In this document: positions 4,951 to 23,361 of the stretch, piece by piece
How the letters are laid out: each line of letters opens with the position of its first letter
Position numbering within the stretch: the first letter of the stretch is position 1
DNA from: a virus
Taxonomy: Duplodnaviria > Heunggongvirae > Uroviricota > Caudoviricetes
Virus record (IMG/VR): IMGVR_UViG_2778261500_000001
Direction: 5' to 3' (one strand)
DNA: 23,709 bases
Position numbers and translations under genes: made by a program
Notes under the pieces: generated by a model
Told to the model about the DNA's origin: nothing
The model's input: only the letters and a program-made list of their open reading frames with translations
The model's database searches: none

Positions 4951-5324
4951 GCTGCTACCTGTTGCGCCATCTGATTACGGGTGATCCAGAAGGCAATAAC
5001 GGTCAGTAGATAAAAGACCAGGGTAATAGCCCACCCCGTCCATGCGAGACTTACAACAATCAGCAATCGCATCACCCAACTGATAAATACGTTTTCTTTT
5101 CGGGTAATTGTCTTCAGCAAAGATGCCCTTAACTCCTGCCAGAGCGGGCCATTCTGAATTAACGCAGCCAGTGCTACCGGAATTACCGCCCATGTCAGCA
5201 AACAGGCTACCCAAACGCCGGACGCTGCCAGTACCGGAAAGATCCCCTGCGGATACACCATTGCTGCGATTAACAGCGCCATCCATAACATCAGAAACAG
5301 TCCGCTGATTAATTTCTTTTTCAT
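4947..5324 (-). CDS. lysA: LysA-like lysis timing membrane protein
   Basis: ORF 4947..5396 is multi-pass hydrophobic; likely start at MKKKLISGLF (ATG at 5322-5324), just after the K stop. Confidence 0.55.
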   Translation of the reverse strand: MKKKLISGLFLMLWMALLIAAMVYPQGIFPVLAASGVWVACLLTWAVIPVALAALIQNGPLWQELRASLLKTITRKENVFISWVMRLLIVVSLAWTGWAITLVFYLLTVIAFWITRNQMAQQVAA

Positions 5325-5325
5325 T

Positions 5326-5838
5326 TCAGTTTGCTCCCTGTAAACACCAGGCCATCTCCCGCGCACGGCGGTTATCCAGCCCCTGATTAAACACACCTTT
5401 TACATAAACCCAGCGCGGCAACTGTCGGCACGCATCCGCCCAGCGCCGCTGATTGAGCAATTTCACCAGCGTGGAGCTGCAGGCATTGCCTGTCCCCACG
5501 TTGAAGGCAAACGACACCACCGAGTCATACACCTTTTGTGGCGGCTGTTGCTTCACACATCTTTCCAGCGCCCGCTCCACACGCAGCACGTTGGAGATAA
5601 GCCCTTCTGCTGCCTGTCGTTCCGTAATGGTTTTGCCGGGAATGACGCCCGACGTATTACCAATGCCGTCAGTCCATACACCCGCGCTGCACTGATACGG
5701 CTGCAGACGACAGCCTTCGTAATCGGCAATCAGTTTCAGTCCCTCCACGGAGGTGTGAAGCTGCTGAAAACCCGGCAGCGTGGCAGCAATAGCCAGCACG
5801 GTCCCGACAAGGCAGCGTTTAACGATTGATGGATTCAT
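5326..5838 (-). CDS. K: Endolysin K (phage lysozyme, GH24-like) with hydrophobic N-terminal SAR-like segment
   Basis: 170 aa; motif EGLKLIADYEGCRLQPYQCSAGVWTDGIGNT typical of T4-lysozyme-type muramidases; N-terminal CLVGTVLAIAATLPGF hydrophobic stretch. Confidence 0.8.
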   Translation of the reverse strand: MNPSIVKRCLVGTVLAIAATLPGFQQLHTSVEGLKLIADYEGCRLQPYQCSAGVWTDGIGNTSGVIPGKTITERQAAEGLISNVLRVERALERCVKQQPPQKVYDSVVSFAFNVGTGNACSSTLVKLLNQRRWADACRQLPRWVYVKGVFNQGLDNRRAREMAWCLQGAN

Positions 5839-6034
5839 AGTCCTCCCGCGTGATCTGCCCGTCGCGCAGAAGCTGGTAGGCTTTGTGTTTGTAGTACCAG
5901 TTGATAGCCAGCATCAGCACACCGATCATCAGGCCGCCCAGCGTTGAGGCATCCTTGATGGACAAATCGCCCAGCCAGGCCAGCACGACGGCGATGCAAT
6001 ACGTGATAAAGGCGCTGATTCGCTCAAGCGTCAT
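5819..6034 (-). CDS. Y: Holin Y
   Basis: 71 aa with two hydrophobic helices and a charged C-terminus; directly upstream of the endolysin. Confidence 0.7.
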   Translation of the reverse strand: MTLERISAFITYCIAVVLAWLGDLSIKDASTLGGLMIGVLMLAINWYYKHKAYQLLRDGQITREDYESINR

Positions 6035-6037
6035 AAT

Positions 6038-6241
6038 TCAGTCCCATAGCTGGACGGTCTGCACGGTGGTGGTTGTCGGAATGTCCGGCAGCTCCACCTG
6101 CAGCCCGTGAGGTAAAAAGGGGCCATATTCGGCAAGCCCCGGATTTGCCTTCAGTACCTGCTCCGTGACACCCTGCGTGCGCCCGTAATGACGCCAGCAA
6201 AGCGCGTCCACCGTGTCATACTGATGCGCACGCACTTTCAT
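6038..6241 (-). CDS. X: Tail protein X
   Basis: 67 aa ORF between L and holin, the P2 gene X position and size. Confidence 0.65.
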   Translation of the reverse strand: MKVRAHQYDTVDALCWRHYGRTQGVTEQVLKANPGLAEYGPFLPHGLQVELPDIPTTTTVQTVQLWD

Positions 6242-6768
6242 CAGATAAGCTCCACTGTGCAGTGCGGCGCATCCTGTACCCGGCTGATGGCCCAGCGGGC
6301 GTCACGCCACAAATCACCGCTGGCTTCCGCCAGTTCCTCGCCCCGCTTCACACCAGACGCCGTGGCGTCATAGTCCTGGTAACGTTCGTTGAGCATGGCG
6401 CGTGCCCAGCAGTAAACCGCGTTGAAATAGTGCTGAATGCGCTCACTTTTGCCGTCCAGTTGTTCCGCCGGAACCTCTGCCAGCGAGGCATATCCCAGCA
6501 TCTGCTGGCGTCTGCGAAACTCATACAGTTCTGCGTTGACCTCCGAAATTGCCGACAGCGCAACCTGCTTTAAACGCGGCTGCGTCACCGTGCCGTCAGT
6601 GCGCATCACACTGCGAAACTCCGACAGGTCCACATCAGGCCAGAACGGCGTATTTCTGATGATTTCCGCCTGTTCCGGTGCCTGTTCTGGTGCAACAAAC
6701 TTCATGCTGCTTTCTCCTGAAATAGAGGGCGGTGGACGGAGTTTTGATGTGGCTGTGCCTTTCGCCAC
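6241..6768 (-). CDS. L: Head completion/stabilisation protein L
   Basis: 175 aa ORF following M in P2 order. Confidence 0.75.
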   Translation of the reverse strand: MAKGTATSKLRPPPSISGESSMKFVAPEQAPEQAEIIRNTPFWPDVDLSEFRSVMRTDGTVTQPRLKQVALSAISEVNAELYEFRRRQQMLGYASLAEVPAEQLDGKSERIQHYFNAVYCWARAMLNERYQDYDATASGVKRGEELAEASGDLWRDARWAISRVQDAPHCTVELI

Positions 6769-6800
6769 CCCGTGCCGCCCGTGCGCGGGGGCACGTTCTG

Positions 6801-7451
6801 TCAGCGGCTGTCATTGCGCAGTCTGCGCTCCAGCTGCTGTTTGTCTTTTTTCACGCCACAGCGGGGATCGAGCTGCAACGCATGGTTGAGATGGTTAAGG
6901 GCGGAAGCCGGATTGCTTTCACTCAGGACAGCGCCAATCGCTTTATGCAGACGCGCCCGTGACTGGTCCGGCATATCCAGACCGTCTGTCAGCTCCAGCG
7001 TCTGCAGCAACAGATCGGCATCAAAGCCGGTGGCGGCAAGCATTGCGCTCTGCGCCGCGTCTGCCATTTCCTCTGCCAGCACGGTCTGCACATTGCGATT
7101 ACCCAGCGGCATCACCCAGCCATGACGCAGGGCGTGACGCCCGATCTCCAGCGCCCCGGCATAATCTCCGGCATCAATGCGCCACAGCATCACGTACATC
7201 AGCACGTCATCCTGTTGAGCGCCTCCGGCAGCAAGGACACCCTCCGCCCAGGCGGCGTACTTCGGCAGCAGCTCCACCTTGATTTCCGCTTTTTTGACCG
7301 TGGACTGAACGCCCTTGAGACGGCGGCGGTCTTCCGCCAGTTGCAGCAGCATCAGGTCATAGCCCGACGCGTGGCGAACGCTGCCGCCCTCGCGGGCGGC
7401 CTGTTCAGCCTGAACGCGCAGGCGATGCTGCCGTGCGGGACTCAGGCTCAT
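6801..7451 (-). CDS. M: Terminase small/endonuclease subunit M
   Basis: 216 aa; region DDVLMYVMLWRIDAGDYAGALEIGRHALRHG resembles P2 gpM as recalled; immediately follows N. Confidence 0.8.
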   Translation of the reverse strand: MSLSPARQHRLRVQAEQAAREGGSVRHASGYDLMLLQLAEDRRRLKGVQSTVKKAEIKVELLPKYAAWAEGVLAAGGAQQDDVLMYVMLWRIDAGDYAGALEIGRHALRHGWVMPLGNRNVQTVLAEEMADAAQSAMLAATGFDADLLLQTLELTDGLDMPDQSRARLHKAIGAVLSESNPASALNHLNHALQLDPRCGVKKDKQQLERRLRNDSR

Positions 7452-7454
7452 GAA

Positions 7455-8513
7455 TTACGCTCCGGTTTCTGCTGCTGCGGCGCTGAAGTCGCCAATCTGG
7501 ATGTTTTCCACCAGTGCGGCGCAGCGGTAGTCCTCAACCACATAGGCTTCGTTAACGGATTCAAAGTTTTCAATCCGGTCACGTTTCGGGTTGTCGATAA
7601 CTGAGCGGCGGCGGGTGTCTTCCTGCCAGTAGATGGACAGGTTATCCAGACGGGTGATCAGCAGTGCATTCGGCGGGAAGAACGGCGCACGCACGGCCTG
7701 CAGGCCACCCATGCGTTTCTGACTGATGATCATATCGGCAGCCAGTTTTTCACTGTTTTCCTGCTCTTTGTTGACCAGCGGGAAATACTTGTCAGACAGC
7801 AGTTCACGACCGCAAATCACCACCAGATCGTCATCGTCCTGGTAGACCACATCGATAAGCTCATTGACGGCATCCATCACCACGGCGTCCAGGTTGGCAT
7901 ATTCGCCACCTTTCCCGACTTTCACCGCACCCGGTGTGGTTTCACCGCCCGTGGTGGTGCTGCCCATGACGTGATCCGGTGCATCTTCACGGATTTTCTG
8001 CAGCCAGCCTTTGTTCACATCCTGCAGCAGCGGGTTTTCGCTACGGCTGGAGGTTTTCGCACGCTTCACGCCGTTAAAGCCGATCATGATGCGGTCCAGA
8101 GCCTGACGTTTCACGATGGCGTCACGGATGCGCACCTGGAAATCCTGAAACTTCGCCCACAGGTCCAGCTTCGCGTAGGTCAGCACCGTGTCAAAGTTGG
8201 TCTGCTCGCATTTATATTCCACATCGACCATCAGCGTCGGATCGACAGGTTCACGCTCTTTCGCGGTGGTGTCAGTGGTTCCGGCAATGGTGCTGCCAAC
8301 TCCCAGCCCCAGCAGCTGACCGGACTGCTCAGTCACTGGCGTGACGTTAATCAGCGTCAGGAAAGCGGCGGACTGCTGGATCTGGTCTTCCAGCGTCTGC
8401 TGCACAGACGGCTCCACGGTGAACTTGCTGGACAGTTCTTCAACTGCCACACCGTTCAGACGCGCCAGCTGCTGCAGGTAAGCGTTAAAAGCAAAGCGGG
8501 TATTCTTCTTCAT
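7455..8513 (-). CDS. N: Major capsid protein N
   Basis: 352 aa; long colinear similarity to P2 gpN from memory (FNAYL..., KFTVEPSVQQTL, KGGEYANLDAVVMDA, NKEQENSEKLAAD, VVEDY). Confidence 0.95.
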   Translation of the reverse strand: MKKNTRFAFNAYLQQLARLNGVAVEELSSKFTVEPSVQQTLEDQIQQSAAFLTLINVTPVTEQSGQLLGLGVGSTIAGTTDTTAKEREPVDPTLMVDVEYKCEQTNFDTVLTYAKLDLWAKFQDFQVRIRDAIVKRQALDRIMIGFNGVKRAKTSSRSENPLLQDVNKGWLQKIREDAPDHVMGSTTTGGETTPGAVKVGKGGEYANLDAVVMDAVNELIDVVYQDDDDLVVICGRELLSDKYFPLVNKEQENSEKLAADMIISQKRMGGLQAVRAPFFPPNALLITRLDNLSIYWQEDTRRRSVIDNPKRDRIENFESVNEAYVVEDYRCAALVENIQIGDFSAAAAETGA

Positions 8514-8529
8514 CGGGTTTTGTGCTCCA

Positions 8530-9363
8530 TCAGCAATTGGTCAGAGTGTCAGCGGGGGCGTTACCGCCTGTTGCACGCTGGCGGTAGTCCTGGCGACTGT
8601 CTTCATGACTCAGCTTGTCCACCAGTTCGTTAAAGGCGGTTTGCTGTGCCTGCAGGGCAGTCTCCAGCTCAGACAGGCGTTCTTCCTGCTCAGACAGGGA
8701 TTTTTCGGTGCGTGCGCTCAGGTTCTGCTGCTCAGTGGCGACCAGCTCCACGGCCTTATGCACATCAGAGAACCGGGCGTCATCGGACTGCTCTTTTTTG
8801 GTAAACAGCGCCGTGACGCGGGCAAACAGGGACGGTTTGTCGTCCTGGATTTCTTCCAGTTCGATCACCGTTTCCTCTGCAGCGGTAAAGAGATTGGCAG
8901 GATTCTGCTTGCGGTTTGCCAGCGGGTTATGGGCTGCACTGGCGCTGAATGTCAGCATTTCCGTACCCAGACTGGCAGGGTCATCAGTGGCAGCCAGGCC
9001 GACCAGATAGGCTTTGCCCGTATCAGCGAACTTCGGGCTGACTTCCATAGAGGTGAATAATTTCTGGCCTTTTTTCACCAGTTCCACCAGGGACTCCGTT
9101 GGCTCAACGTCGGCATACAGCGCCATCTTGCCTGCCAGCGGACCTTCCGTGATTTCTTCAGCAAACAGCGCCGTCACCTTGCCGTAGCGGTTAAAGGTGC
9201 TGTCCGGCAGATAAGACTTGATGTGCTCAAGGTTAATCAGCGCGGTATACACCGCCGGGTTGTAGCTGGCTGCCATCTGTTCCAGCCATTCACGCTGGAT
9301 TTCGCGTCCGTCGGTGGTGGCACCTTCCACCCCGATGCGAAAACGCTTTGCTTTCACTGTCAT
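8530..9363 (-). CDS. O: Capsid scaffolding protein O
   Basis: 277 aa acidic coiled-coil-rich ORF immediately upstream of N and divergent from P, as in P2. Confidence 0.85.
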   Translation of the reverse strand: MTVKAKRFRIGVEGATTDGREIQREWLEQMAASYNPAVYTALINLEHIKSYLPDSTFNRYGKVTALFAEEITEGPLAGKMALYADVEPTESLVELVKKGQKLFTSMEVSPKFADTGKAYLVGLAATDDPASLGTEMLTFSASAAHNPLANRKQNPANLFTAAEETVIELEEIQDDKPSLFARVTALFTKKEQSDDARFSDVHKAVELVATEQQNLSARTEKSLSEQEERLSELETALQAQQTAFNELVDKLSHEDSRQDYRQRATGGNAPADTLTNC

Positions 9364-9441
9364 GAGCCGTGCTCCGTTAGAAAAAACTTACAGGAGCCTT
9401 ATGGTTGCGGTGATGGGGGCAGTGAAACAATGCGCGGTATT

Positions 9442-9459
9442 TGTACCGACAACCACACA
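9442..9459 (+). promoter_or_regulatory. TGT-N12-ACA element (tgtaccgacaaccacaca), putative late-activator site for the P-Q operon promoter
   Basis: Seen directly in the O/P divergent intergenic region, centred 55.5 bp upstream of the P ATG, the same geometry as the V site. A degenerate half-site lies near 9412-9429 at similar distance from O. Confidence 0.5.
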
Positions 9460-9505
9460 AACCGCAGGCGGGGAAAGCCTTCATTCAAGGCTGTAGGTTT
9501 GTGCC

Positions 9506-11272
9506 ATGAACACCACACTGACACCCGCAGATCTCGATCCCCGTCGGCAGGCCATGCTGCTGTACTTTCAGGGATACCGCGTAGCCCGCATTGCTGAAAT
9601 GCTGGGCGAGAAAGTTGCAACCGTTCACAGCTGGAAAAAACGCGACAAGTGGGGTGACTATGGGCCGCTGGATCAGATGCAGCTCACCACCGCCGCACGC
9701 TACTGCCAGCTCATTATGAAGGAGCACAAAGAAGGGAAAGATTTCAAAGAAATTGACCTGCTGGCGCGCCAGTCGGAGCGCCACGCGCGGATCGGCAAGT
9801 TTAACAATGGCGGCAACGAAGCCGACTTAAACCCTAACGTCGCCAACCGCAACAAAGGCCCGCGCCGTCAGCCGGAAAAGAATGTTTTCACCGATGAACA
9901 GATAGAGAAACTGGAAGAAATCTTCCATTCCTCCATGTTCAACTACCAGCGCCACTGGTGGGAAGCCGGAAAAACCAACCGCATCCGCAACCTGCTGAAG
10001 TCACGCCAGATCGGCGCGACCTTTTACTTTGCCCGTGAAGCCCTGATTGACGCCCTGCTTACCGGACGTAACCAGATTTTCCTTTCTGCCAGTAAGGCAC
10101 AGGCTCACGTCTTTAAGCAGTACATCATCGACTTCGCCAAAGAAGTCGAGGTGGAGCTGAAAGGCGATCCGATGGTGCTTCCTAACGGGGCCACGCTTTA
10201 CTTCCTCGGCACCAATGCCCGCACGGCGCAGAGTTACCACGGCAACCTGTATCTGGATGAATATTTCTGGATACCGAAATTCCAGGAGTTGCGCAAAGTG
10301 GCTTCCGGTATGGCTATTCACAAGAAATGGCGACAAACCTATTTTTCCACGCCATCCAGCCTGACCCACAGTGCTTATCCGTTCTGGTCCGGTGCGCTGT
10401 TCAACCGTGGACGCAACAAAGCTGACAAGGTGGACATCGACCTGTCCCACAGCAATCTGGCCCCCGGCCTACTGTGCGCAGACGGGCAATACCGCCAGAT
10501 AGTCACCGTGGAAGATGCGGTGCGCGGCGGCTGTAACCTGTTCGACCTCGACCAGCTGCGCATGGAGTACAGCCCGGACGAATACCAGAACCTGCTGATG
10601 TGCGAGTTCGTGGACGATCTCGCGTCCGTGTTCCCGCTCAGCGAACTGCAGGCGTGCATGGTGGACAGCTGGGAAGTCTGGACCGACTTTCATGCACTGG
10701 CCCTGCGCCCGTTTGGCTGGCGCGAAGTGTGGATCGGTTATGACCCGGCAAAAGGTACGCAGAACGGCGACAGTGCCGGATGCGTGGTGGTGGCTCCGCC
10801 AGCCGTGCCGGGTGGTAAGTTCCGCATTCTTGAGCGTCACCAGTGGCGCGGGATGGACTTCCGCGCCCAGGCTGACGCCATCAAAAAACTGACCGAACAG
10901 TATAACGTGACCTATATCGGTATCGACTCGACCGGCGTCGGTCACGGGGTTTACGAGAACGTGAAAGCGTTTTTTCCTGCCGTCAGGGAGTTTGTCTATA
11001 ACCCCAACGTTAAAAACGCCCTGGTACTCAAGGCCTACGACATTATCAGCCACCGCCGTCTGGAGTTTGACGCCGGGCACACCGACATTGCGCAGTCATT
11101 TATGGCAATCCGTCGCGCTACCACTGCCAGTGGCAACCGCCCGACCTATGAAGCCAGCCGCAGCGAAGAAGCCAGCCATGCCGATCTGGCCTGGGCAACA
11201 ATGCACGCACTGTTTAACGAACCGCTGCAGGGCGAGTCCGCCAATACCAGCAATATTGTGGAGATTTTTTGA
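9506..11272 (+). CDS. P: Terminase large (ATPase) subunit P
   Basis: 588 aa, P2 gpP size and position; divergent from O and followed by Q with a 4-nt overlap. Confidence 0.9.
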   Translation: MNTTLTPADLDPRRQAMLLYFQGYRVARIAEMLGEKVATVHSWKKRDKWGDYGPLDQMQLTTAARYCQLIMKEHKEGKDFKEIDLLARQSERHARIGKFNNGGNEADLNPNVANRNKGPRRQPEKNVFTDEQIEKLEEIFHSSMFNYQRHWWEAGKTNRIRNLLKSRQIGATFYFAREALIDALLTGRNQIFLSASKAQAHVFKQYIIDFAKEVEVELKGDPMVLPNGATLYFLGTNARTAQSYHGNLYLDEYFWIPKFQELRKVASGMAIHKKWRQTYFSTPSSLTHSAYPFWSGALFNRGRNKADKVDIDLSHSNLAPGLLCADGQYRQIVTVEDAVRGGCNLFDLDQLRMEYSPDEYQNLLMCEFVDDLASVFPLSELQACMVDSWEVWTDFHALALRPFGWREVWIGYDPAKGTQNGDSAGCVVVAPPAVPGGKFRILERHQWRGMDFRAQADAIKKLTEQYNVTYIGIDSTGVGHGVYENVKAFFPAVREFVYNPNVKNALVLKAYDIISHRRLEFDAGHTDIAQSFMAIRRATTASGNRPTYEASRSEEASHADLAWATMHALFNEPLQGESANTSNIVEIF

Positions 11273-12309
11273 TGGGAAAGAGTAAGAAGAACCGCGCTGC
11301 GTCGACGAAACAGATCCAGCATAAAAGCCAGACTTCAGCCGAAGCATTCAGCTTCGGTGATCCCGTTCCTGTTCTGGACCGCCGCGAACTGCTGGACTAT
11401 GTGGAATGCGTACAGATGGATCGTTGGTACGAGCCGCCTGTGAGTTTCGACGGACTGGCGCGAACCTTCCGCGCCGCCGTGCATCACAGCTCACCGATTG
11501 CAGTGAAGTGCAACATTCTGACCAGCACCTACATCCCTCACCCGCTGCTCAGCCAGCAGGCTTTTTCGCGTTTTGTACAGGACTATCTGGTTTTTGGTAA
11601 CGCCTACCTGGAGAAACGCACGAACCGCTTCGGTGAAGTTATCGCCCTTGAGCCTGCACTGGCAAAATACACCCGACGCGGGTTAGACCTTGATACCTAC
11701 TGGTTTGTGCAATACGGCATGACTACGCAGCCGTATCAGTTCACGAAAGGCAACATTTTTCATCTGATGGAACCGGACATCAACCAGGAGATCTACGGCC
11801 TGCCTGGTTATCTTTCTGCCATTCCGTCAGCTCTGCTCAACGAGTCCGCCACGCTGTTCCGCCGCAAGTATTACATTAACGGCAGTCATGCAGGCTTCAT
11901 CATGTACATGACCGATGCAGCGCAGAACCAGGAGGATGTGAACAACCTCCGCAATGCGATGAAAAGCGCCAAAGGTCCTGGTAACTTCCGTAACCTGTTT
12001 ATGTACTCGCCTAACGGTAAAAAGGACGGGCTTCAGATTATCCCGTTGTCAGAAGTGGCGGCGAAGGATGAGTTCCTGAATATCAAGAACGTGAGCCGGG
12101 ACGACATGATGGCGGCGCATCGTGTGCCGCCACAAATGATGGGGATAATGCCTAATAATGTCGGGGGGTTTGGGGATGTGGAGAAGGCCAGCCGTGTATT
12201 CGTCCGAAATGAGCTAATGCCACTACAAAAGCGATTACAGGAGATGAATGATTGGCTTGGCAAGGAGGCGATACAGTTTAATACCTACTCGCTAGATATA
12301 GTCCCATAA
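11269..12309 (+). CDS. Q: Portal protein Q
   Basis: 346 aa ORF downstream of P, P2 gpQ size and position. Confidence 0.9.
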   Translation: MMGKSKKNRAASTKQIQHKSQTSAEAFSFGDPVPVLDRRELLDYVECVQMDRWYEPPVSFDGLARTFRAAVHHSSPIAVKCNILTSTYIPHPLLSQQAFSRFVQDYLVFGNAYLEKRTNRFGEVIALEPALAKYTRRGLDLDTYWFVQYGMTTQPYQFTKGNIFHLMEPDINQEIYGLPGYLSAIPSALLNESATLFRRKYYINGSHAGFIMYMTDAAQNQEDVNNLRNAMKSAKGPGNFRNLFMYSPNGKKDGLQIIPLSEVAAKDEFLNIKNVSRDDMMAAHRVPPQMMGIMPNNVGGFGDVEKASRVFVRNELMPLQKRLQEMNDWLGKEAIQFNTYSLDIVP

Positions 12310-12343: not shown

Positions 12344-13084
12344 TTACTCAATAGGTTCAAACTCATCCTGAGGAATCAGCGTCGATTGACAGGCTTGGCT
12401 TAGTACTCCTGATAATTTACATAATAACCGATAGTTATGAGGAGCATCATCGCTAATCTTTTCGACCGTTAAAGTGATTGATTTTGGATCATCCAATAAC
12501 ATCTTCTTGATATCATTACTTAAATACCTAGGGCAGTAACCAACGATTTCAGCTGGTTTATCTGCACGAACGACAACAGCATCCCCATCGTATTCATTTT
12601 GAAGATCCAAGCAAAGACGCAAAATTTGCCCCGGTTTCAATTCAGATACACGAGCATTAGCTAAGCTATTTAAGTAACCAAGTCCATGTAAGAAGAAAAA
12701 ATGCTCAAAGTTACCATCAGAATCAACATCAATTTTTTTGAAAATCTGCAGCTGATCAGTGCTTCGTAAGCCTCCCGAGCGAGCAAGAATATCGATAGGA
12801 TTTACCTTATCTTCTTCAAATCCAAGCCATTTAATGAAACTCGGATACTCTGGACGTCTCGGTGATAAAAGGCGATTTTTAAAAAGAGGAAACAATTCTT
12901 CCGAAACATAAGTTTCACGAACATCACTCATGCCGCTAAACTTTGTAAATTTAGTAGATTTAAGAGCACCTTTGGTATACCTGAAAACATACCCCGATTT
13001 GCGCTCTTGCAAGTTACCAACAACATGCCAGTCTCTGGTATCTGGTGCCTGCCATGCGACGTAAACGGAGTTTGTATTAGTCAT
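12344..13084 (-). CDS. Partner protein with HipA-N-terminal-like domain fused to a HIRAN-like domain
   Basis: 246 aa. N-terminal part (VYVAWQ...VVGNL...YVFRY; LFPLFKNRLLSPRRPE; IDILARSGGLRS) resembles the HipA N-terminal subdomain as I recall it. C-terminal part (LKPGQILRLCLDLQNEYDGDAVVVRADKPAEIVGYCPRYLSNDI) fits the HIRAN pattern. Start overlaps the stop of the upstream kinase gene. AT-rich. Confidence 0.6.
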   Translation of the reverse strand: MTNTNSVYVAWQAPDTRDWHVVGNLQERKSGYVFRYTKGALKSTKFTKFSGMSDVRETYVSEELFPLFKNRLLSPRRPEYPSFIKWLGFEEDKVNPIDILARSGGLRSTDQLQIFKKIDVDSDGNFEHFFFLHGLGYLNSLANARVSELKPGQILRLCLDLQNEYDGDAVVVRADKPAEIVGYCPRYLSNDIKKMLLDDPKSITLTVEKISDDAPHNYRLLCKLSGVLSQACQSTLIPQDEFEPIE

Positions 13085-13995
13085 TCTAGTAACCTTCTGC
13101 GATTTTCCATTACCATTAACGTTGCAAATCTACGTGCACTGTCGGATATACACGATGAAGGCACTTGGTTAAACACATCTGTAATGGAATCTTCTGTTAA
13201 AACGCTCAACTTACCTAACCAATGGTCGCGAGCGGCAACTCTCCCTTCAACTGCATGTTGAAATGCTTCAACGGTCAGCAAGGGCTTTTTATCAGTTTTT
13301 GCTTTGAATAGCTCAGAGCGAGCTTTTCTTACAAAACATGGGATTTGTCGATTTTTATCTTTAGTATTAAGCCGTTCGTTACGCTCATCATCTAACATCT
13401 CCCTTCCTAAACTAGCGGCATGATCGTATGTTGGACACAAAAACTGCTCACCAGTTTCATTGTTAAGCATGATCGCCCAATTTTCATGATGGCGATCTTG
13501 ATTACTCACAAGTGCATCGAGCATCAAAAATCCACAAAATACATCTGCTGCATTTAGCCCGGTTAGATCATATACACTCGGAGGAGGCTTGATAGATTCC
13601 CTATCTAAACAACCCAATACCCTTGTGACAGTGTGTTCTCTGACCCTTACCGGCTTTTCCCCGGCTTGTAAAGGCCCTGGATAATCGAATGTCGAACTGT
13701 GAAGCACTTCATTTCCCATTACCATCCGGAAACCAGATGGAATGATATTCTGAGTCACCACACCGAATCGACCATTGTATCGCGCCAAATCATAGCTAGC
13801 ATGTGGAATGTTAAGCAAATGACATAACTCAGCAGCACACTTTTCAGACCAATGCTCGCCAGTACCTGGCCTAGAGTACTTAAACAACTGCAAATTTACA
13901 GTGTCATCGGAGAAATAGAACCAAAACTTCTCTTTGGTTCCTAACTGTTCAAGATCGTTAGCTACGGGGCTAAGCTCTACCAATTGGTATGGCAT
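13081..13995 (-). CDS. HipA-like Ser/Thr protein kinase, core kinase domain only
   Basis: 304 aa. Motifs seen: FLMLDALVSNQDRHHENWAIM (compare HipA catalytic loop with Asp) and LCPTYDHAASLG (compare HipA PAYD Mg-binding Asp), plus a glycine-lysine motif LGTKEKF near the N-terminus. Putative catalytic Asp167 and Asp191 by my count. No HipA N-terminal domain in this ORF. Confidence 0.75.
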   Translation of the reverse strand: MPYQLVELSPVANDLEQLGTKEKFWFYFSDDTVNLQLFKYSRPGTGEHWSEKCAAELCHLLNIPHASYDLARYNGRFGVVTQNIIPSGFRMVMGNEVLHSSTFDYPGPLQAGEKPVRVREHTVTRVLGCLDRESIKPPPSVYDLTGLNAADVFCGFLMLDALVSNQDRHHENWAIMLNNETGEQFLCPTYDHAASLGREMLDDERNERLNTKDKNRQIPCFVRKARSELFKAKTDKKPLLTVEAFQHAVEGRVAARDHWLGKLSVLTEDSITDVFNQVPSSCISDSARRFATLMVMENRRRLLE

Positions 13996-14508: not shown

Positions 14509-14934
14509 ATGAAAAGCTTTTACGTATTAATTTTAATTCTGGTTGCAAGCTTTGTTAGCGTCCCAGTTCAGGCGGTAACAGCTAAAAACTATGAGAAAGG
14601 AACTAAAGCTCAACAGAAATCAATATCTTACCTTTCATGTGCATTCTATGGCAGTAGCACACAATTAGATCCTAGCTACACGGAGCAAGTACCTACAGCC
14701 GATATCAAGATATTACAGAAAGCAGCTTACCACGCTTACAACGATGCGCTCTCATACTTTGGCTATGAGGAACCAGATCACGAACAACGCATAATTGATT
14801 ATGCTGAATTTGTGGCGTCGCAAGAAGCTGTGTTATGGGATAAGCCGGGAATGAATGGAAAGCAGGTAACACTAATTGCTCGTTCTCTCTACAATGAGAG
14901 TAACTGTAACTTGTTACTGGACTCAATTAAGTAG
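14509..14934 (+). CDS. Small secreted protein of unknown function (accessory/moron gene)
   Basis: 141 aa with a classic Sec signal peptide (MKSFYVLILILVASFVSVPVQA, AxA-type cleavage site); GAGG Shine-Dalgarno 8 nt upstream; AT-rich; only plus-strand gene in this island. Confidence 0.5.
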   Translation: MKSFYVLILILVASFVSVPVQAVTAKNYEKGTKAQQKSISYLSCAFYGSSTQLDPSYTEQVPTADIKILQKAAYHAYNDALSYFGYEEPDHEQRIIDYAEFVASQEAVLWDKPGMNGKQVTLIARSLYNESNCNLLLDSIK

Positions 14935-15678: not shown

Positions 15679-18051
15679 TTAATACAGGTTCCGCCACTTA
15701 TCATCTTCCTGCAAACGCTGGTTCCGATAGAAGATACGCAGGCCTGCTCCTGACGGAATACTGCCGCCGCGAAGGAGTAAATCGACCTCTTTCTCGCTGC
15801 CATCAAATCCTCTGGACTTCAGTTCATAGACGAGCTGCTGTCGCTGATGGTCTGTAATTCGCTGTTTGTAGTCTTTACGCCGTTTCGGTTTCACCAGGCG
15901 TAACCTTGCAGCCAGTTCCCGGCGCTCTTTTTTGCTCATACTGTGCAGGTATTCGTGCAACTCCTTGTCATCCATGCGGGTAATGTCCGTTCTGGTATCC
16001 CCATCAGCTGATTTGTCTTTCCCTTGTTGGTTCAAATTTTCAGCAAGGGGACAGTTATTGCCACGAGTCCAAGGGGCGCAAGCGCCCTGGTCGGCTGCCG
16101 CCTCCTGAACATCAACGGCCTTACGAACCATTTTCCACTTCACGGCATGAGTGCAGATCTTGCCCTCTGCAATAGGTGACCAGATGCCATAAATACGAAT
16201 GCCGTGATCGCCATAGGCGGTCGGCTCTTCGTTGATTTCATAAGCGGTTCTGATGAGGTGATATTTGCGGGGAACCAGTACGCCGCCCTGCTTCATGATG
16301 TAGGTGGCAAAACAACCAGCATCAGCAGCAGCCAGGATGGCATCAAGGCGCGGGTTATCCAGTACCGGCGCACCTGCTTTTTTGTCCCCCTGTTGCCTTG
16401 CCGCCTGACCAGCCAGCAATCGCAGTTCACGGTAAGCCTGACGCCCCGGAATGCCAAAGAAGCGGAATTGCTGAACACGATGCAGAGACGCCCAGGCATT
16501 AACGTATTCAGCATTATCACGCAGGGATTTCCCCGTTTCCTTGCTGATCTCGCCAGCCAGACCACGCCCGTCAATGTTCTTACTGATGTATTTCGCGATG
16601 TAGCTTGTTGGCGTACCTTTGCGCGGGTTAATCAACTCAGACTTAAAGCGCGGCCCAGTGTTATTGCCCAGTTCCTCGCGGTCTTCACGGATGGCAAACT
16701 TACGCAGTAATGCAGTGATGGCGCGGCGGTCTTTTTTGCGCATAAAACACAACAGGTGCCAGTGAACTGTACCGTCATGATGCGGCTCAGCCACCCGCAC
16801 GCCATACCACCGCAATCCGGCTTTGTGCATCGCCTTACGAAATGCAGCAAACATGCCGACCAGATAATCACTGCTTTGTCTTACCGTCGCATTTGTCCAA
16901 GTTGGGTTGGGCCTGCCATTATTTAGCGTGGAATGGAAACGTGACGGACAGGTGATGGTGTAGAAAACGGCGCAGTCACCGCGCATTTCCGCGATAAGCT
17001 CCAGGCCTTTAACACAGGCCATCATCTCATTGCGGCGATGCGCAGGGTTGCTGCTGCTGGCGTTTACCACATCCTCCATGTCCAGCGTGTCGCCGTCTTC
17101 GTTCACCAGTTCATGAGAACGAAAAAACTCCAGCGACTTACGGCGCTGCTCACGTTTATGCATCACGGCTTCATAGCTGACATAGGGAGATGCTTTTTTG
17201 CTGACCAGGCAGACAGCACGCAACTGCTCTTCCCGCCATTCGCAACGCATCTTCCATAATTTCCGGTACCACCAGTCAGCGCACAACATACGCGCCAGCG
17301 AACCCGGAATGAGTTCATAGGGCACGGGTTTACGGCGGTTTCTTTTCCGGCGGAGTTGCTCAAACGCAGGCGGGATGACATCCAGACGCAGGGTTTCCGC
17401 TGCCACCTTTTCCCATGTCTTGCGGATTTCTTCTGGCTTAACGTCATCGGTGACATACAAATCGCCACAAGCTGCATCAAGGCACATGCTCATATGCGCA
17501 GCTACCAGGGTGGACAGGCGTTTCACCTGATCCTGACTCATTTCAGGCAGGATCAGCAGGCCGTCCAGCCCTTCATGGCTTGCCATAAAGCGAAAAGAAG
17601 TGGATAGCTGACAGTCGCGTACATGCTCCAGCCGTTCCAGACATGGCTTAATCGTCTCACGCAAATAGCGGGAATAAGCCTTTGGCCTGCCCAGGCTGCT
17701 GAAGTATTCAATACGTTGCATCAGTGGCTTGCTGATATGGGAAGGCTGGGCATTAACGTCCGCCAGAATGACCATATCTGGATTAAAACGCTGCTGCTCA
17801 TGCGCCAGCTTTGCCCGACTAATGAGCTTATCCTGCTCCATTTCGCGCTGGACAGGATCACGGGATTCATTAAAGAAATAACGCTCCCAGACCTGATCAC
17901 TCAGTGCCTCGCGGCGCAGCTGTTCCTGCTCGTTATCGGCAGCGTACAGAGCGATCAGGTTTGAAAGCGCAGAAACTGAAGATTGCTCTTCCGTCTCTAC
18001 GTAAGGATTGATTGCTTTTTTCTCAGCATTCCAGGAATAGCTGTAGTTCAT
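15679..18051 (-). CDS. A: Replication initiation protein A (rolling-circle endonuclease)
   Basis: ORF 15679..18102 (807 aa); probable start at MNYSYSW (18051), overlapping the upstream stop as TAATG. Contains a two-tyrosine motif [12 protein letters not shown] consistent with P2 gpA active-site tyrosines. Confidence 0.85.
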
Positions 18052-18881
18052 TACGCAATCTCCAGTTCGAGCTGTGAAGGCTGCAAACCATTCGACAGCC
18101 AATCAGAAACTGAAGGTGGGCGAACAGCTTCAATTGCACCTTTTAAAATTGCGCAACGGTTTTTCAGAATGACAGCTTTCAGCTCCTTTTCCGTCAGATT
18201 GCGCGAATACTCAGCCTCCTGAATAGCCCGCGTCAGCTCAGGATATTTGCTATTAAATTTGGGGACATTGCAGGCAAGATTTGTACTGTCGGCAGTCGCC
18301 AGTGGGTAATTTCCCAACACACGACCGTCAAGCATGCGCAAACCATGAACAGCTGTTTTGAAATTGTGTCGGCAATAAATTGCTTCAAAAGCGTCCTGCA
18401 TACGACGATGCCAGTGCGCAGTTCTGATAGCCGCATATTCACCAGACGATCCAAAGCAGACACGAGGCCATTCACGACATAGCTCGATAAGCCGATCGAT
18501 TGACTCGTGCAGATGCCAGACGGGAGTTGCCTTCCCGTAGAACATTTTCGGAACTTCGTTTATCAGGGCATCATTGTCACGTTCACCTCCGTCCACAACA
18601 TCAGGAATGACAAAAAAAGCGACCTTAGGATGGTGGTAATAGTTCAGGAGCCATTTATAAAAATCACTCCAGTTAATTTTTAGCCCACGCACCCATGCAG
18701 AAAATGCGCCGTTATCAATGCCGACGACCTGAGCGTGCTGAATGGACGCCGCAATCTGATCTGGTCGTACATAGGAGACGAAAGCGCCAGCTCCGCTCAC
18801 CGCAATACGATGAACGTCGCCAGCACTTCCCCAGACAGGCGTCCCATGGAAATGATGAATTCCGTGGTGCATTTCTTTCAC
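18051..18881 (-). CDS. Hypothetical protein, possibly TGT/DpdA-like TIM-barrel (uncertain)
   Basis: 276 aa; GTG start overlaps the Dam stop (GTGA), stop overlaps the A start. Motifs [32 protein letters not shown] are weakly reminiscent of tRNA-guanine transglycosylase-like enzymes; unverified. Confidence 0.45.
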
Positions 18882-19732
18882 ACTTGCACCCCGAAAATAA
18901 CAGTAGAGTCACGTCCCCTACTAAAATCGGCACTAAACCAATTAGCAGATTTAGTGGCAATCATCTCTGTTGCAAATTTTCCCTCCCCCGCTGCAACGCC
19001 GATGCTGCGTTTCGCCCTGATGTAGTGGTGAGTGAAATTACGATAAAGGGACCGGGTCAAAGACGTGTTACTGTTAGAAACAATGACCGGATGTCCTTCT
19101 GATGACCGATGTTCAAGAATGGATGCCAGGTGATACTGATCATCTTCAGTGAAACCATCAGTGTGATAGCCGGAAAACGTACCGTCATAAGGCGGATCGC
19201 AATACACCACATCCCCCACCTTCAACATCGCCAGCGTTTCATCAAAGCTGGCGCAGATAAACGTTGCCCGCTGGGCTTTCTCTGCAAATGCGCGAATTTC
19301 TTTTTCAGGGAAATACGGATTTTTATAATTACCGTAGGGAATGTTGAAATGCCCGCTCTTGTTATAGCGACATAAACCACGGTAACCGTGACGATTGAGA
19401 TACAGGAAATATACCGCTTTCATGAAATCAGTAATTTCAGTGGAGTAATTAAACTCCTGCCTTATGTTGTAATAAGCCACCTCCCTGTTTGCTTCCTCAA
19501 ATAAAGCTCTGGCACGAGATATAAACGCCTCACAATCAGCAGCAACCTTTTTATAGAGGTTGATTAAATCAGGATTAATATCCGCAACAAGATAGCTGGG
19601 GTAATCCGTCTCCATCATCACTGCACAGGAACCCGCGAAAGGTTCAACCAGTCGCGGGCCAGCAGGAAGATGCTTTTTCAGTTCGGACATTATGGCGGTT
19701 TTATTTCCTGCCCATTTCAGGATGGTGCTCAT
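18878..19732 (-). CDS. dam: DNA adenine methyltransferase (Dam family)
   Basis: ORF 18878..19792; likely start [11 protein letters not shown] (ATG at 19732, ATGA overlap with the upstream gene). Motifs KWAGNK, EPFAGS and DPPY are the Dam/D12-class N6-adenine MTase signatures. Confidence 0.85.
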
Positions 19733-19956
19733 ACAGCACCTCCGTTGTAATGTTTGCCTTTCAGCTCTGCGATTTCCTGACAGGTAATGCAAAGCTGCAC
19801 ACCCGGAATGGCACGGCGGCGTGCTGGCGGAATTGGCGCTTCACACTCAACGCAAAGCACGCGGGACACGCCCGGCGTTTTGGCACGGGCAGCACGGATA
19901 TGGCGTTGGCGTTCTTCTTCAACGCGCTGCTGTACGAGATCCATTGCATCAGCCAT
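19729..19956 (-). CDS. TraR/DksA-family C4 zinc-finger protein
   Basis: 75 aa with CVEC-X17-CITC spacing typical of TraR/DksA-type zinc fingers, not the Ogr/B late activator pattern. Confidence 0.7.
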   Translation of the reverse strand: MADAMDLVQQRVEEERQRHIRAARAKTPGVSRVLCVECEAPIPPARRRAIPGVQLCITCQEIAELKGKHYNGGAV

Positions 19957-20195
19957 CAGTGGATCTCCTGCGCTTCGTTCTGGATTGCTTCAGCAGTCAC
20001 ACGCAGCAGTTCTGCCGCTTCGACGTGGTTTAGCTGGCGGGAGGTGATATGACACGCCAGGCTATCGAGGCGAGCAGCCATTGCTTCAGCCCTTGCCCGG
20101 CGTTCTTCCAGACGAGCCTCTGTCAGTAAAAGATTAAGACCTGCATCATCCGGTCCGGTTTTGGTCGTGAGGGTTTCAATATTACGCATAAGCAA
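19956..20195 (-). CDS. Hypothetical early-operon protein
   Basis: 79 aa ORF; stop overlaps the TraR-like start; no recognisable motifs. Confidence 0.4.
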   Translation of the reverse strand: MLMRNIETLTTKTGPDDAGLNLLLTEARLEERRARAEAMAARLDSLACHITSRQLNHVEAAELLRVTAEAIQNEAQEIH

Positions 20196-20256
20196 TTCTC
20201 CTGAATTTAGATAAAGGGATGCCCGGCGGGTTTACGCCATTAATTTCATTAGTTGG

Positions 20257-20598
20257 TTAATTCGGCATGGTTAGCCGTCTGGGAAATAAGCTCACCACTG
20301 CACGAAAATGATTCATTGCTTTAATCAACTCCCGCTTTTCGTCAGTGGTCAGCTCATTAATGCTGATGCTATGACGTTCAGCTGGAATTTTTGCCATAAA
20401 GAATATGGCAGCCAGTGCCCGTTTATTTTGTTCATTATTGATATCCCGAGGATCACGCATATCTTTAATAAACCGCTCAAGCTCTGACTCAATATTCAAA
20501 CCAAAAACTTTCGCCCTTAACTCCGCAATATGATTAAGTCCATTCAGGCGTTCACCGGGTCTTAATGGAACAGTCGCCGCAGCGCCTTCAATAGCCAT
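20257..20598 (-). CDS. Hypothetical early-operon protein
   Basis: 113 aa ORF in the cII-to-A early region; no recognisable motifs. Confidence 0.4.
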   Translation of the reverse strand: MAIEGAAATVPLRPGERLNGLNHIAELRAKVFGLNIESELERFIKDMRDPRDINNEQNKRALAAIFFMAKIPAERHSISINELTTDEKRELIKAMNHFRAVVSLFPRRLTMPN

Positions 20599-21533: not shown

Positions 21534-21584
21534 AAGGCAACATCTCCTGTTTAAGTGTGTTTAACATTGACGAGTAGTTGTAAG

Positions 21585-21658
21585 TCACATTTTGAAATCA
21601 ATGCGACTATAAGATCACAAATTGAAATCGTCAACCATAAAGTTCACAAGGTGAAATC
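21585..21658. repeat. Three 15-bp direct repeats TCACA-N3-TGAAATC at about 30-bp spacing (putative operators)
   Basis: tcacattttgaaatc (21585-21599), tcacaaattgaaatc (21615-21629), tcacaaggtgaaatc (21644-21658), seen directly in the apl/cI intergenic region, overlapping the candidate pR. Confidence 0.55.
21606..21634 (-). promoter_or_regulatory. Candidate lytic promoter pR (sigma70-type) directed towards apl
   Basis: Minus strand reads TTGACG - 17 nt - TATAGT (-35 at 21629-21634, -10 at 21606-21611); apl start lies about 65 bp downstream. Confidence 0.6.
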
Positions 21659-21659
21659 G

Positions 21660-22226
21660 ATGGATTTTAGTCAAGGTGGAAAGAAAGCTATCGAAAGGAT
21701 GGTTGAAGCCTATGGGTTCACTACAAGACAGGCGTTATGTGAACAACTAGGCATATCAAAAAGCAGTCTTGCTACACGCTACATGAGAGATTCATTCCCT
21801 TCTGATTGGGTTATTCAGTGCGCGCTCGAAACAGGAGTAAACATAAAGTGGCTGGTAACAGGCTTACCTCCTAAACATGAATATTTAACGTCTGACATCA
21901 TCAATATTCAAAAAATAAAATTGATTGATGGAGTGCTATTGGATGCAGGAACACTAATGTTTGACAAAGTGTTCATTCCTGATGGTTTATCATCACCATC
22001 TGTGATATCAAACGGGAATAACTCTTATTTTATTGAGAGGGATTTCACAGATGTAGTTGATGGTGATTGGTTAATCTCCATTGATGGAAAGCATTCTATA
22101 AAACAAGTTATTAGAATTCCTGATAATAAAGTTAAGATTAACTATGGGAATATCATTGTTGATATGAACATTAATGACCTTGTATTCATCGGCAAAGTTA
22201 TAGCAGAATTCAAGATAAGAGGCTAA
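21660..22226 (+). CDS. cI: CI-like immunity repressor (186 CI family)
   Basis: ORF 21555..22226 begins with GTG inside the intergenic region; likely true start is ATG at 21660 (MDFSQGG...), preceded by AGGTGA. N-terminal region AYGF...QLGISKSSLATRYMRDSFPSDWVIQCALETGVNIKWLVTG resembles the 186 CI HTH domain as recalled. Confidence 0.75.
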   Translation: MDFSQGGKKAIERMVEAYGFTTRQALCEQLGISKSSLATRYMRDSFPSDWVIQCALETGVNIKWLVTGLPPKHEYLTSDIINIQKIKLIDGVLLDAGTLMFDKVFIPDGLSSPSVISNGNNSYFIERDFTDVVDGDWLISIDGKHSIKQVIRIPDNKVKINYGNIIVDMNINDLVFIGKVIAEFKIRG

Positions 22227-22227: not shown

Positions 22228-23361
22228 ATGAATATTACTCGATTAAAACTGAAAAATTGGAAAAACTTCAGGAATATTGATGTTCCTCTTCATGACCGTG
22301 TTTACATCATAGGGCCAAATGCTGTAGGTAAATCAAACTTCCTTGATGTCTTTCGCTTTATGAGTGATATTTGTAGAGATGGTGGTGGTTTACAAAAAGC
22401 GGTCAATGATAGAGGTGGCATAACAAAACTCCGTTGTCTTCAAGCGAGAAATGATACCGAAGTAGGTATAACCATATATTTTGAGGAAGACGATAACGAG
22501 TGGATTTATGAACTTATTTTCAAGGCATCTGGCCGAGGGAAACAGTTAATTCACGTCACTAGTGAAAATGTATATAAAAATGGTGAGCATATATTGAGCC
22601 GCCCCAATGCTCATGATCATGCTGATGCTGTTCAGTTGACTCAAACACATCTTGAGCAAATTTTAGCAAATCAAAGTTTTAGAGTGATTTCAGATTTCTT
22701 CACATCTGTTACATACTTGCATATAGTTCCACAGTTGCTCAAATTCGCCAAAGAAATTGGGGTTAATAAAATAGATGATGACCCATTTGGACAAGGGTTT
22801 CTTGACCGATTAGCAAATACTCAAACACGAACCAGAGATGCCTGGCTAAAAAAAATACAAGCAGGGCTATCTATTGCTGTTCCGCAGTTTAAAGAGTTAC
22901 GCTTTGAAAGAGATGAATCAGGGCAACCACACTTAGAAGCAAGGTACGAGCACTGGAGGCCAAATGCTGGATGGCAAAAAGAAGAGCAGTTTTCAGATGG
23001 AACATTACGTTTAATCGGTTTGATGTGGTCACTTCTTGAGAAAAGACAGCTACTTTTAATGGAAGAACCTGAATTATCTTTGAACAGTGAAATTGTGAAA
23101 TTTATACCTGAAATCATTGAAAACACGCTTAAAGGTGCTCGAAATCAAAAGCAAATCATCATTAGCACTCACAGTCCATCGTTGCTAAGTAATAATATCG
23201 ATGGCAATAACATTATTCTATTTACAGCATCTGAAAACGGTACTACAGCGAGAACACCTACAGATGATGAATTGGATGCAATGAGAGTCGGTTTCTCTGC
23301 TGCTGAAATCATGTTGCCTCATACGACGCCTGCCAATATAAGTAAAATTGCAGAGATCTAG
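22228..23361 (+). CDS. ABC-type (AAA_21/OLD-like) ATPase, putative defence-system component
   Basis: 377 aa. Walker A GPNAVGKSN, signature-like FSDGTLR, Walker B-like LLLMEEPE, H-loop ISTHSP, all seen directly. ATG is 1 nt after the cI stop with an AAGAGG SD. Confidence 0.8.
   Translation: MNITRLKLKNWKNFRNIDVPLHDRVYIIGPNAVGKSNFLDVFRFMSDICRDGGGLQKAVNDRGGITKLRCLQARNDTEVGITIYFEEDDNEWIYELIFKASGRGKQLIHVTSENVYKNGEHILSRPNAHDHADAVQLTQTHLEQILANQSFRVISDFFTSVTYLHIVPQLLKFAKEIGVNKIDDDPFGQGFLDRLANTQTRTRDAWLKKIQAGLSIAVPQFKELRFERDESGQPHLEARYEHWRPNAGWQKEEQFSDGTLRLIGLMWSLLEKRQLLLMEEPELSLNSEIVKFIPEIIENTLKGARNQKQIIISTHSPSLLSNNIDGNNIILFTASENGTTARTPTDDELDAMRVGFSAAEIMLPHTTPANISKIAEI

Follow-up and report, generated by a model that had tools for sequence, protein, structure and literature searches.

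The 276-aa protein encoded directly upstream of the replication gene A in the window analysed here, a stretch of 23,709 nucleotides from a virus of the Caudoviricetes, is probably a minimal DNA transglycosylase of the phage DpdA family, with a place in the DpdA1-like singleton clade. Our analysis points to a gene of the early lytic operon in an E. coli prophage of the 186 type (186/P2-like), whose product would draw on a precursor made by the host and would leave rare dPreQ0 or dADG marks on phage DNA. The features that bear on this reading are the following:

15679 to 18051, minus strand: gene A, rolling-circle replication initiator/endonuclease (790 aa; PF05840, E=1e-127; phrog_91, E=1.8e-288)
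18051 to 18881, minus strand: dpdA-like gene, 276 aa from GTG 18881, predicted DNA guanine/7-deazaguanine transglycosylase
Within it, minus strand: predicted active-site codons of D56 (18716-18714), D94 (18602-18600), H123 (18515-18513), H179 (18347-18345) and D198 (18290-18288)
18878 to 19732, minus strand: Dam-family N6-adenine DNA methyltransferase (284 aa from ATG 19732; PF02086, TIGR00571, DPPY)
19729 to 19956, minus strand: TraR/DksA-type C4 zinc-finger protein (75 aa; PF01258, E=4.4e-11; TIGR02419, 67.1 bits against a cutoff of 59.7; phrog_54)
19956 to 20189, minus strand: DUF2732 protein, first of the five coupled genes (PF10809, E=4.1e-29)
21606 to 21634, minus strand: candidate sigma-70-like promoter, TTGACG-17-TATAGT, a consensus match only

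The initial annotation described five minus-strand genes joined by overlapping stop and start codons, and reading positions 18000-20320 against the ORF list verified each of these genes and each of the four junctions. The order along the strand is DUF2732, TraR/DksA-like, Dam, 276-aa ORF, gene A. The first and the last junction overlap by a single nucleotide, as TGATG between the DUF2732 and TraR-like genes (TGA 19958-19956, ATG 19956) and as TAATG between the 276-aa ORF and gene A (TAA 18053-18051, ATG 18051); the two inner ones overlap by four, as ATGA between the TraR-like gene and Dam (TGA 19731-19729, ATG 19732) and as GTGA between Dam and the 276-aa ORF (TGA 18880-18878, GTG 18881). Two starts of the mechanical ORF list were corrected, namely that of Dam, for which the list gave TTG 19792 (304 aa), and that of gene A, which begins at ATG 18051 and not as a protein of 807 aa. 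The DUF2732 gene, 79 aa long if read from TTG 20195, probably starts at ATG 20189, which gives 77 aa. The consensus match at 21606 to 21634 is a candidate for the early lytic (pR-type) promoter of the operon: downstream of it follow an apl-like ORF, cII, fil, DUF5347 and then the five coupled genes, and the genes for cII, Fil and the CI repressor were identified in the region. Promoter-like sites in the region, and terminator-like sites within the operon, are no commoner than in shuffled sequence.

The 276-aa ORF is a real gene. Its homologues form 4,313 clusters at 90% identity, and in comparisons with orthologs pN (0.13-0.19) lies far below pS (0.72-0.80), a sign of strong purifying selection. 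The position of its start is ambiguous between two codons. PGAP places it at ATG 18872, which yields 273 aa and a gap of 5 nt after Dam; the Citrobacter ortholog, however, keeps the GTGA overlap and has no in-frame ATG from the GTG to the conserved motif, and GTG 18881 is therefore favoured.

The neighbouring methyltransferase had been named Dam from its motifs, and profile comparisons agree with this: it matches the D12 methyltransferase family PF02086 over model positions 1-253 of 253 (E=2.4e-76) and the Dam subfamily TIGR00571 with 318 bits (cutoff 114.85), and the catalytic DPPY motif is present in the translation as CDPPYD. The protein scores under the cutoff of NF008152, the equivalog of host Dam. 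The number of GATC sites, 82 observed against 84 +/- 8 expected, is uninformative on Dam.

A resemblance of the 276-aa protein to TGT and DpdA had been suspected initially, and it is now borne out as far as family and fold are concerned. The protein matches PHROG 887 ("queuine tRNA-ribosyltransferase") with E=2.4e-96, and the validated DpdA of phage 9g matches the same PHROG with E=2e-98. A direct BLASTP comparison of the two proteins (E=8e-4) aligns the DxGAF, HxxE, VHG and DS motifs, with an identity of about 20% over the alignable 149 residues. The predicted fold is a (beta/alpha)8 barrel, to which structures of the TGT family are the most similar, and the DpdA of Pantoea phage vB_PagS_MED16 was linked by HHpred to 2ASH with 99.18% (PMC8306585). 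Other searches gave little: scans of the 276-aa protein against Pfam, NCBIfam (E<=1) and PADLOC returned nothing beyond noise, phmmer against the PDB and hmmsearch with a shallow and a diverse family profile returned only noise (GCN4 coiled coils, a coat protein and the like), and hhalign of both profiles against a single E. coli Tgt sequence stayed below a probability of 1%. Nothing in these searches tied the sequence to canonical TGT or to bacterial DpdA. The 9g DpdA itself has neither a Pfam match nor a phmmer match in the PDB, and of 120 family representatives listed, not one carries a Pfam domain. By its sequence the protein falls into the DpdA1-like 'singleton' or DpdA-only group of Hutinet 2019, a known type of gene.

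The putative active site is strongly conserved. No substitution of D56, H123, H179, D198 or S199 occurs in 72 diverse relatives, and 71 of these also keep D94. In the model of the protein the conserved residues sit at or just past the C-terminal ends of successive beta-strands, with D56, D94 and D198 at or just after the ends of strands 52-56, 87-91 and 196-199. The motifs (D...F, D, H, a G-rich loop, hGh and D) follow one another in the same order as the residues of bacterial DpdA (bDpdA), namely Asp95-Phe99, Asp130, His181, Gly206-207, Leu236 and Asp256 (PMC10164549), and the spacing D56-x3-F60 equals that of Asp95-Phe99. Motif order and the alignment with 9g DpdA suggest that D56, D94 and D198 correspond to the bDpdA aspartates. 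H179 aligns with His196 of 9g DpdA in the VHG motif, and an equivalent of this histidine is present in DpdA1 and absent in DpdA2 (PMC6884629). TGTs and bDpdA have a conserved structural Zn site, CxCx2Cx(22)H (PMC10164549); the CxCxxC zinc motif is absent in the 276-aa protein and in all 72 aligned relatives, 9g DpdA included.

We infer a catalytic activity on DNA that would proceed as follows. The gene would be transcribed within the early lytic operon, and its translation would follow that of Dam and precede that of the replication initiator A. On the model of TGT and bacterial DpdA, D198 would attack C1' of the target deoxyguanosine in double-stranded phage DNA, whereby guanine is displaced; D56 would serve as the general acid/base, and D94, H123 and the G144-S-S-G147 loop would hold the base. 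The inserted base would be a 7-deazaguanine from the FolE-QueD-QueE-QueC pathway of the host, presumably preQ0 and possibly its amide ADG. Genes for preQ0 synthesis were found neither among the window proteins scanned nor in the PGAP annotation of the ATCC 8739 prophage region. Outgoing phage would carry two epigenetic marks, that of Dam and that of DpdA, and might gain some benefit against restriction. Levels reported from relatives suggest that the modification is rare, with about 0.02-0.13% of G as dADG/dPreQ0, and not a bulk replacement.

Two other activities of a TGT-like protein have to be weighed against this reading. A transglycosylase that acts on tRNA, i.e. a TGT brought by the phage to remodel its own or the host's tRNA in the lytic cycle, is improbable, as the name of PHROG 887 was inherited by remote homology and not from an assay, the 9g DpdA validated in the same PHROG modifies DNA (PMC6884629), dADG occurs in the virion DNA of 7-11 and MED16, two phages with a singleton DpdA (PMC6884629, PMC8306585), and E. 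coli already possesses Tgt. Improbable to a similar degree is a DNA glycosylase or base-excision enzyme with a TGT-like site, which would take guanine or some modified base out of the DNA, e.g. for anti-defence or host takeover, and would insert no deazaguanine. Such an enzyme would be in keeping with the first half-reaction of TGT and DpdA, a base displacement through a covalent Asp intermediate (PMC10164549), with a prophage that brings no precursor pathway, and with the very low modification levels measured in relatives (PMC6884629, PMC8306585). Yet deazaguanine does occur in the DNA of these relatives (PMC6884629, PMC8306585), and abasic or covalently trapped DNA would damage the phage's own genome. 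Moreover, a homolog with 61% identity in the Flyfo siphovirus Tbat1_6, a virus not mentioned in the main text of Cui et al. 2023, lies directly after a gene for a Vut_1/YhhQ-type transporter; YhhQ homologs have been named as phage-encoded preQ0 transporters (Hutinet 2019, PMC6884629), and a precursor transporter beside a close homolog only makes sense if deazaguanine is used.

Less credible still is a role as a deazaguanine-binding partner in the manner of Cap10, in which the protein would bind a 7-deazaguanine or help to attach it to a protein, e.g. the coupled A, and not to nucleic acid. Cap10 of type IV CBASS (PDB 9ntn) shares about 10% identity with the 276-aa protein and is seen in its solved structure in complex with the NDG-modified CD-NTase CdnD, and a gene for a CD-NTase or a QueC-like Cap9 was found neither among the window proteins scanned nor in the annotated prophage.

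Of about 1,245 E. coli genomes that carry related prophages, 102 have the gene and about 92% lack it, and in the gene-less related E. coli prophages that were sampled Dam overlaps A directly. The dpdA-like gene is an accessory, optional cassette beside Dam, just upstream of A. The initial annotation had further proposed that two modification activities are coupled to the replication initiator. The operon linkage stands, but a functional tie does not follow from it: the coupling to A is generic operon architecture, seen also as the direct overlap of Dam with A in the sampled gene-less prophages, and linkage to A alone therefore implies no functional connection between DpdA and the initiation of replication. 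A decaying or functionless passenger of the operon, as the absence from about 92% of these genomes and the hypothetical RefSeq annotation might suggest, is hardly to be believed in view of the strong purifying selection, the invariant active-site residues, an unbroken ORF with at least 99% identity across the 102 genomes, and the coupled start and stop signals kept in Citrobacter.

If the protein is a DpdA-type DNA transglycosylase, the amide form of the mark still calls for comment. A DpdC-like amidating enzyme was found neither among the window proteins scanned nor in the annotation of the ATCC 8739 prophage, and we know of none in 7-11 or MED16. Nevertheless dADG, and not dPreQ0, is the main form in the virions of these two phages, according to data that are virion-level correlations (PMC6884629, PMC8306585), and for this reason the chemistry of our explanation is incomplete. 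One could speculate, at rather long odds, that Zn-less gamma-proteobacterial singleton DpdAs, the 276-aa protein among them, are specialised for rare, site-specific dADG without DpdB or DpdC, either by direct insertion of the QueC intermediate ADG or by an intrinsic amide step, and that a swappable single-gene cassette which copies the Dpd mark lets temperate phages pass as self. Dpd systems restrict DNA without the Dpd mark. If true, such mimicry would account for the predominance of dADG over dPreQ0 in 7-11 and MED16, for levels like those of bDpdA, and for the lack of a general protection from common restriction enzymes.

Our results assign a probable, specific function to a gene that about 2% of complete E. 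coli genomes carry under the RefSeq name "hypothetical protein", among them that of the common laboratory strain ATCC 8739, and that goes unmentioned in a worldwide survey of P2-like viruses (PMC13100340). They also disclose an annotation gap: the protein, whose family counts 4,313 clusters, is unrecognised by Pfam and NCBIfam, and Pfam misses even the validated DpdA of 9g. The near-isogenic natural prophage variants of E. coli, with the arrangements Dam-A and Dam-DpdA-A, are a convenient system for studying the role of the rare dADG/dPreQ0 marks of DpdA-only temperate phages, as well as the formation of dADG without DpdC.

Among known systems, the bacterial DpdA of the Dpd restriction-modification system of S. 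Montevideo (PDB 7UI4) has 413-436 aa in the PDB chains, four insertions and the structural Zn site CxCx2Cx22H, it depends on DpdB, a ParB-like ATPase, and the amide is formed by DpdC (PMC10164549). The scan of the window proteins and the prophage annotation yielded neither DpdB nor DpdC, and no counterparts of the insertions, the Zn site or the partners of bDpdA were found for the 276-aa protein and its prophage. The DpdA of phage 9g shares with the protein PHROG 887, the DS nucleophile motif and the lack of CxCxxC and of a Pfam match, and when expressed alone in E. coli it produces dPreQ0 in plasmid DNA from the host precursor (PMC6884629). In contrast to 9g, the prophage has no deazaguanine pathway, and a low level of modification is to be expected. 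The DpdA of Salmonella phage 7-11 is 34% identical to the 276-aa protein, and the DNA of this phage contains dADG at 0.02% of G; no modification was seen in mycobacteriophage Orion, which has DpdA only (PMC6884629).

The DpdA of MED16 (gp38) is considerably more similar, with 54.7% identity over 96%. Like the prophage, MED16 combines a singleton DpdA and no preQ0 genes with an adenine methyltransferase, but it is a siphovirus for which a new genus has been proposed, its dpdA has no link to a replication initiator, and the methyltransferase, of another type than Dam, is encoded about 1.2 kb from dpdA. Its virion DNA contains dADG at about 0.13% of G in addition to m6dA, with dpdA as the only 7-deazaguanine gene, and the dADG gave no visible protection from the restriction enzymes tested (PMC8306585). 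The closest counterparts are SEN1 gp38 (YP_009217891) and SW9 gp39 (YP_009883327) from P2/186-like Peduoviridae, which are the sole viral homologs in the tree branch of MED16 DpdA (PMC8306585). Both share about 75% identity over 97% with the protein, are likewise 276 aa long, and are encoded in the early operon directly upstream of gene A and overlapping it; the host is Salmonella instead of E. coli, and in SW9 a DUF5405 gene takes the upstream place that Dam has in the window. SEN1 YP_009217891 is listed among the DpdA-only phages, without preQ0/G+ genes, in Supplementary Data 1 of Hutinet 2019. The prophage gene does not represent a new kind of system but a type of gene already described.

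The protein of 276 aa encoded between Dam and gene A is almost certainly a homolog of the DpdA family. The initial annotation had offered a TGT/DpdA-like assignment only tentatively; it is supported by profile membership, relatives and active-site residues, which identify a DpdA-type DNA transglycosylase homolog adjoining Dam. In PHROGs the protein belongs to phrog_887, "queuine tRNA-ribosyltransferase" (E=2.4e-96), as does DpdA of phage 9g (L003 3007-3960; E=2e-98), for which preQ0 insertion into DNA has been demonstrated experimentally (PMC6884629). It has no match in Pfam, NCBIfam or PADLOC, nor by sequence in the PDB; Pfam and PDB sequence searches likewise fail to match the validated 9g DpdA, and a Pfam domain occurs in 0 of 120 family representatives among those listed. 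Phage DpdA1 is effectively without a model in the Pfam, NCBIfam and PDB-type libraries searched, hence the RefSeq label "hypothetical".

Identity of the 276-aa protein to phage proteins (tblastn against phage genomes)
75.5%: Salmonella phages SW9 and SEN1
61%: Flyfo siphovirus Tbat1_6
54.7%: Pantoea phage MED16
38%: coliphage HK106
34%: Salmonella phage 7-11

The 186-like Eganvirus SW9 carries its dpdA homolog in the equivalent slot, right before gene A. In the MED16 paper, SW9 gp39 and SEN1 gp38 are the sole viral homologs in the tree branch holding MED16 DpdA, which HHpred links to T. maritima TGT (probability 99.18%). A link to canonical TGT by sequence profile was not reproduced here: hmmsearch with the family profiles against the PDB returned nothing relevant, and hhalign against one single E. 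coli Tgt sequence gave no link.

The AlphaFold model, for which 49 homologs were used, has high confidence (mean pLDDT 88.8, pTM 0.84) and alternates strands and helices in the manner of a TIM barrel; named Foldseek matches among viral models are mainly phage "queuine tRNA-ribosyltransferase". A library-wide HMM search yielded 883 cluster representatives at E<=1e-3, and 67 of these were aligned with the window protein and DpdA of 9g, 7-11, HK106 and MED16 (n=72). D56, H123, H179, D198 and S199 are present in 72/72 sequences and D94 in 71/72, all six being placed by the model at or just past the C-terminal end of successive beta-strands. Their order is that of the active site of bDpdA, the bacterial DpdA of the Dpd system (Asp95...Phe99, Asp130, His181, Gly206-207, Leu236, Asp256), in which Asp95 serves as general acid/base and Asp256 makes the nucleophilic attack (PMC10164549); a residue-to-residue match is inferred from the order of the motifs together with the alignment to 9g. 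H179 aligns to His196 of 9g, which separates DpdA from DpdA2 (Hutinet et al., PMC6884629). TGTs and bDpdA share a conserved structural zinc motif, CxCx2Cx22H, which the window protein lacks and which occurs in 0/72 aligned sequences, 9g DpdA included. The active-site residues, the His196 equivalent and the missing zinc motif together place the protein in a minimal phage DpdA1-like lineage, neither canonical TGT nor bDpdA. Values of pN (0.13-0.19) versus pS (0.72-0.80) against the Citrobacter and SW9 orthologs indicate strong purifying selection.

The window covers a portion of a 186-type (P2-like) prophage of E. coli, and chromosomal prophages of many E. coli strains are 100% identical to its segment 17500-20300.

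Principal features of the prophage
~1-12300: P2-type portal, terminase, capsid and tail genes, compared with the annotated ATCC 8739 prophage
12344-13084, minus: candidate PDC-M03 B component (PADLOC E=3.4e-93)
13081-13995, minus: candidate PDC-M03 A component (PADLOC E=1.4e-121)
minus strand, in order: apl-like ORF, cII (PF06892), fil (PF10893), DUF5347, DUF2732, TraR/DksA zinc-finger gene, Dam, 276-aa ORF, A (PF05840), DinI
21555-22226, plus: CI-type repressor (PF07022/PF16452)
22228-23361, plus: AAA ATPase, 377 aa (Pfam AAA_21)

Two low-GC islands hold candidate defence genes. The overlapping pair at 12344-13995, between A/DinI and the portal gene, occupies the P2 'tin/old' cargo position, in which the ATCC 8739 copy has other hypothetical genes. 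The ATPase gene (GC 0.36-0.38), starting directly past the repressor ORF, has a PADLOC match to HEC-01A, a candidate defence protein (E=5.5e-154), and weaker ones to AriA, AbiLi, Old and GajA ATPases; a partner gene may lie beyond the window end at 23709. A putative 141-aa ORF in a low-GC island (14509-14934, plus) has no Pfam or PADLOC match.

Read directly on the minus strand, all four junctions of the proposed five-gene coupling overlap: TGATG (DUF2732/TraR), ATGA (TraR/Dam), GTGA (Dam/276-aa ORF) and TAATG (276-aa ORF/A). The biologically sensible starts of Dam (284 aa, ATG 19732) and A (790 aa, ATG 18051) give proteins shorter than the mechanical ORFs. PGAP starts the 276-aa ORF at ATG 18872 (273 aa); because the Citrobacter ortholog keeps the GTGA overlap and has no in-frame ATG from GTG to the conserved motif, we favour GTG 18881 as the probable start. 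The overlap with A stands, but as an operon property it is not evidence of a specific functional tie to replication initiation. A candidate early promoter is a sigma-70-like match at 21634-21606 (minus), and terminator-like sites inside the operon do not exceed chance. Over the whole window GATC sites are about as frequent as shuffles predict (82 observed vs 84 +/- 8 expected) despite the phage's own Dam.

A search of 5,426 complete E. coli genomes recovers the gene from 102 of them, always at >=99% identity and, in every record among the matches listed, flanked by Dam and A; a related early operon is found in ~1,245 genomes. Sampled genomes without the gene mostly show a direct Dam/A overlap (ATGA; e.g. 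NC101), and the exchanged segment also covers the Dam 3' end and the A 5' end. Since slot contents vary among prophages (Citrobacter, Dam-DpdA-A; SW9, DUF5405-DpdA-A; Serratia, TraR-DpdA-A with Dam missing), dpdA is an optional cassette. The whole TraR-to-A stretch behaves as a multi-slot cargo region, because a DUF3850 gene separates TraR from Dam in some related prophages that lack dpdA (e.g. E. coli Ec1115, L011 1745-2047); inserts keep overlapping start/stop codons (cf. window 19729-19732). One otherwise identical operon copy, in E. coli H32 (NZ_CP184262.1 3195895-3200008), is split by an IS3-family transposase, its match forming two pieces spanning 4.1 kb. A 421-aa protein on one 36.6-kb Logan contig (P0011) joins an N-terminal Dam (PF02086) to DpdA residues 46-273 at 100% identity, either a real in-frame deletion fusion or an assembly/frameshift artefact.

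Lambdoid prophages in E. coli and in Klebsiella carry DpdA homologs of 63-67% identity (L007 5001-5810; L008 5001-5804; L013 5001-5840), preceded by a small gene, followed by an endolysin (Peptidase_M15_4 or CHAP) and, shortly downstream, the terminase. In L007 that small gene resembles a holin (weak Phage_holin_3_1); in L008 and L013 it has no Pfam match. DpdA expression is lytic-cycle specific in P2-like and lambdoid settings alike; we know of no discussion of the recurrent late-operon location before the endolysin. In Tbat1_6 a Vut_1/YhhQ-type transporter gene (L009 3525-4001; PF02592, 40.5 bits vs 27.2 cutoff) lies directly upstream of the homolog, which suggests a two-gene precursor-uptake/insertion module and supports use of the free 7-deazaguanine base in this DpdA clade.

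That the 276-aa protein modifies phage DNA with host-derived 7-deazaguanine is probable, if less secure than its family. Neither the scanned proteins of the window nor the annotation of the prophage includes folE, queC, queD, queE, queF, arcS, yhhQ, dpdB or dpdC. Hosts of DpdA-only phages have the full queuosine pathway, except Clostridium and Mycobacterium, and 9g DpdA alone in E. coli places dPreQ0 at 0.03-0.3% of G in plasmid DNA (PMC6884629). Virion dADG amounts to 0.02% of G in 7-11 (PMC6884629) and 0.13% in MED16, where it blocks none of the restriction enzymes tested (PMC8306585). Because of these data and the Tbat1_6 arrangement, the expected product would be rare dPreQ0 or dADG marks, set after replication and probably sequence-specific.

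Hutinet et al. 2019 (PMC6884629) described a third group of 76 phages with DpdA and without G+ or preQ0 synthesis genes, which fits the rows of SEN1 (YP_009217891), HK106 and 7-11 in their Supplementary Data 1, each with a DpdA accession only. The DpdA-only class and its P2-like members have been described before, and the Dam-DpdA-A cassette found in E. coli adds to this known kind a new member with predicted activity.
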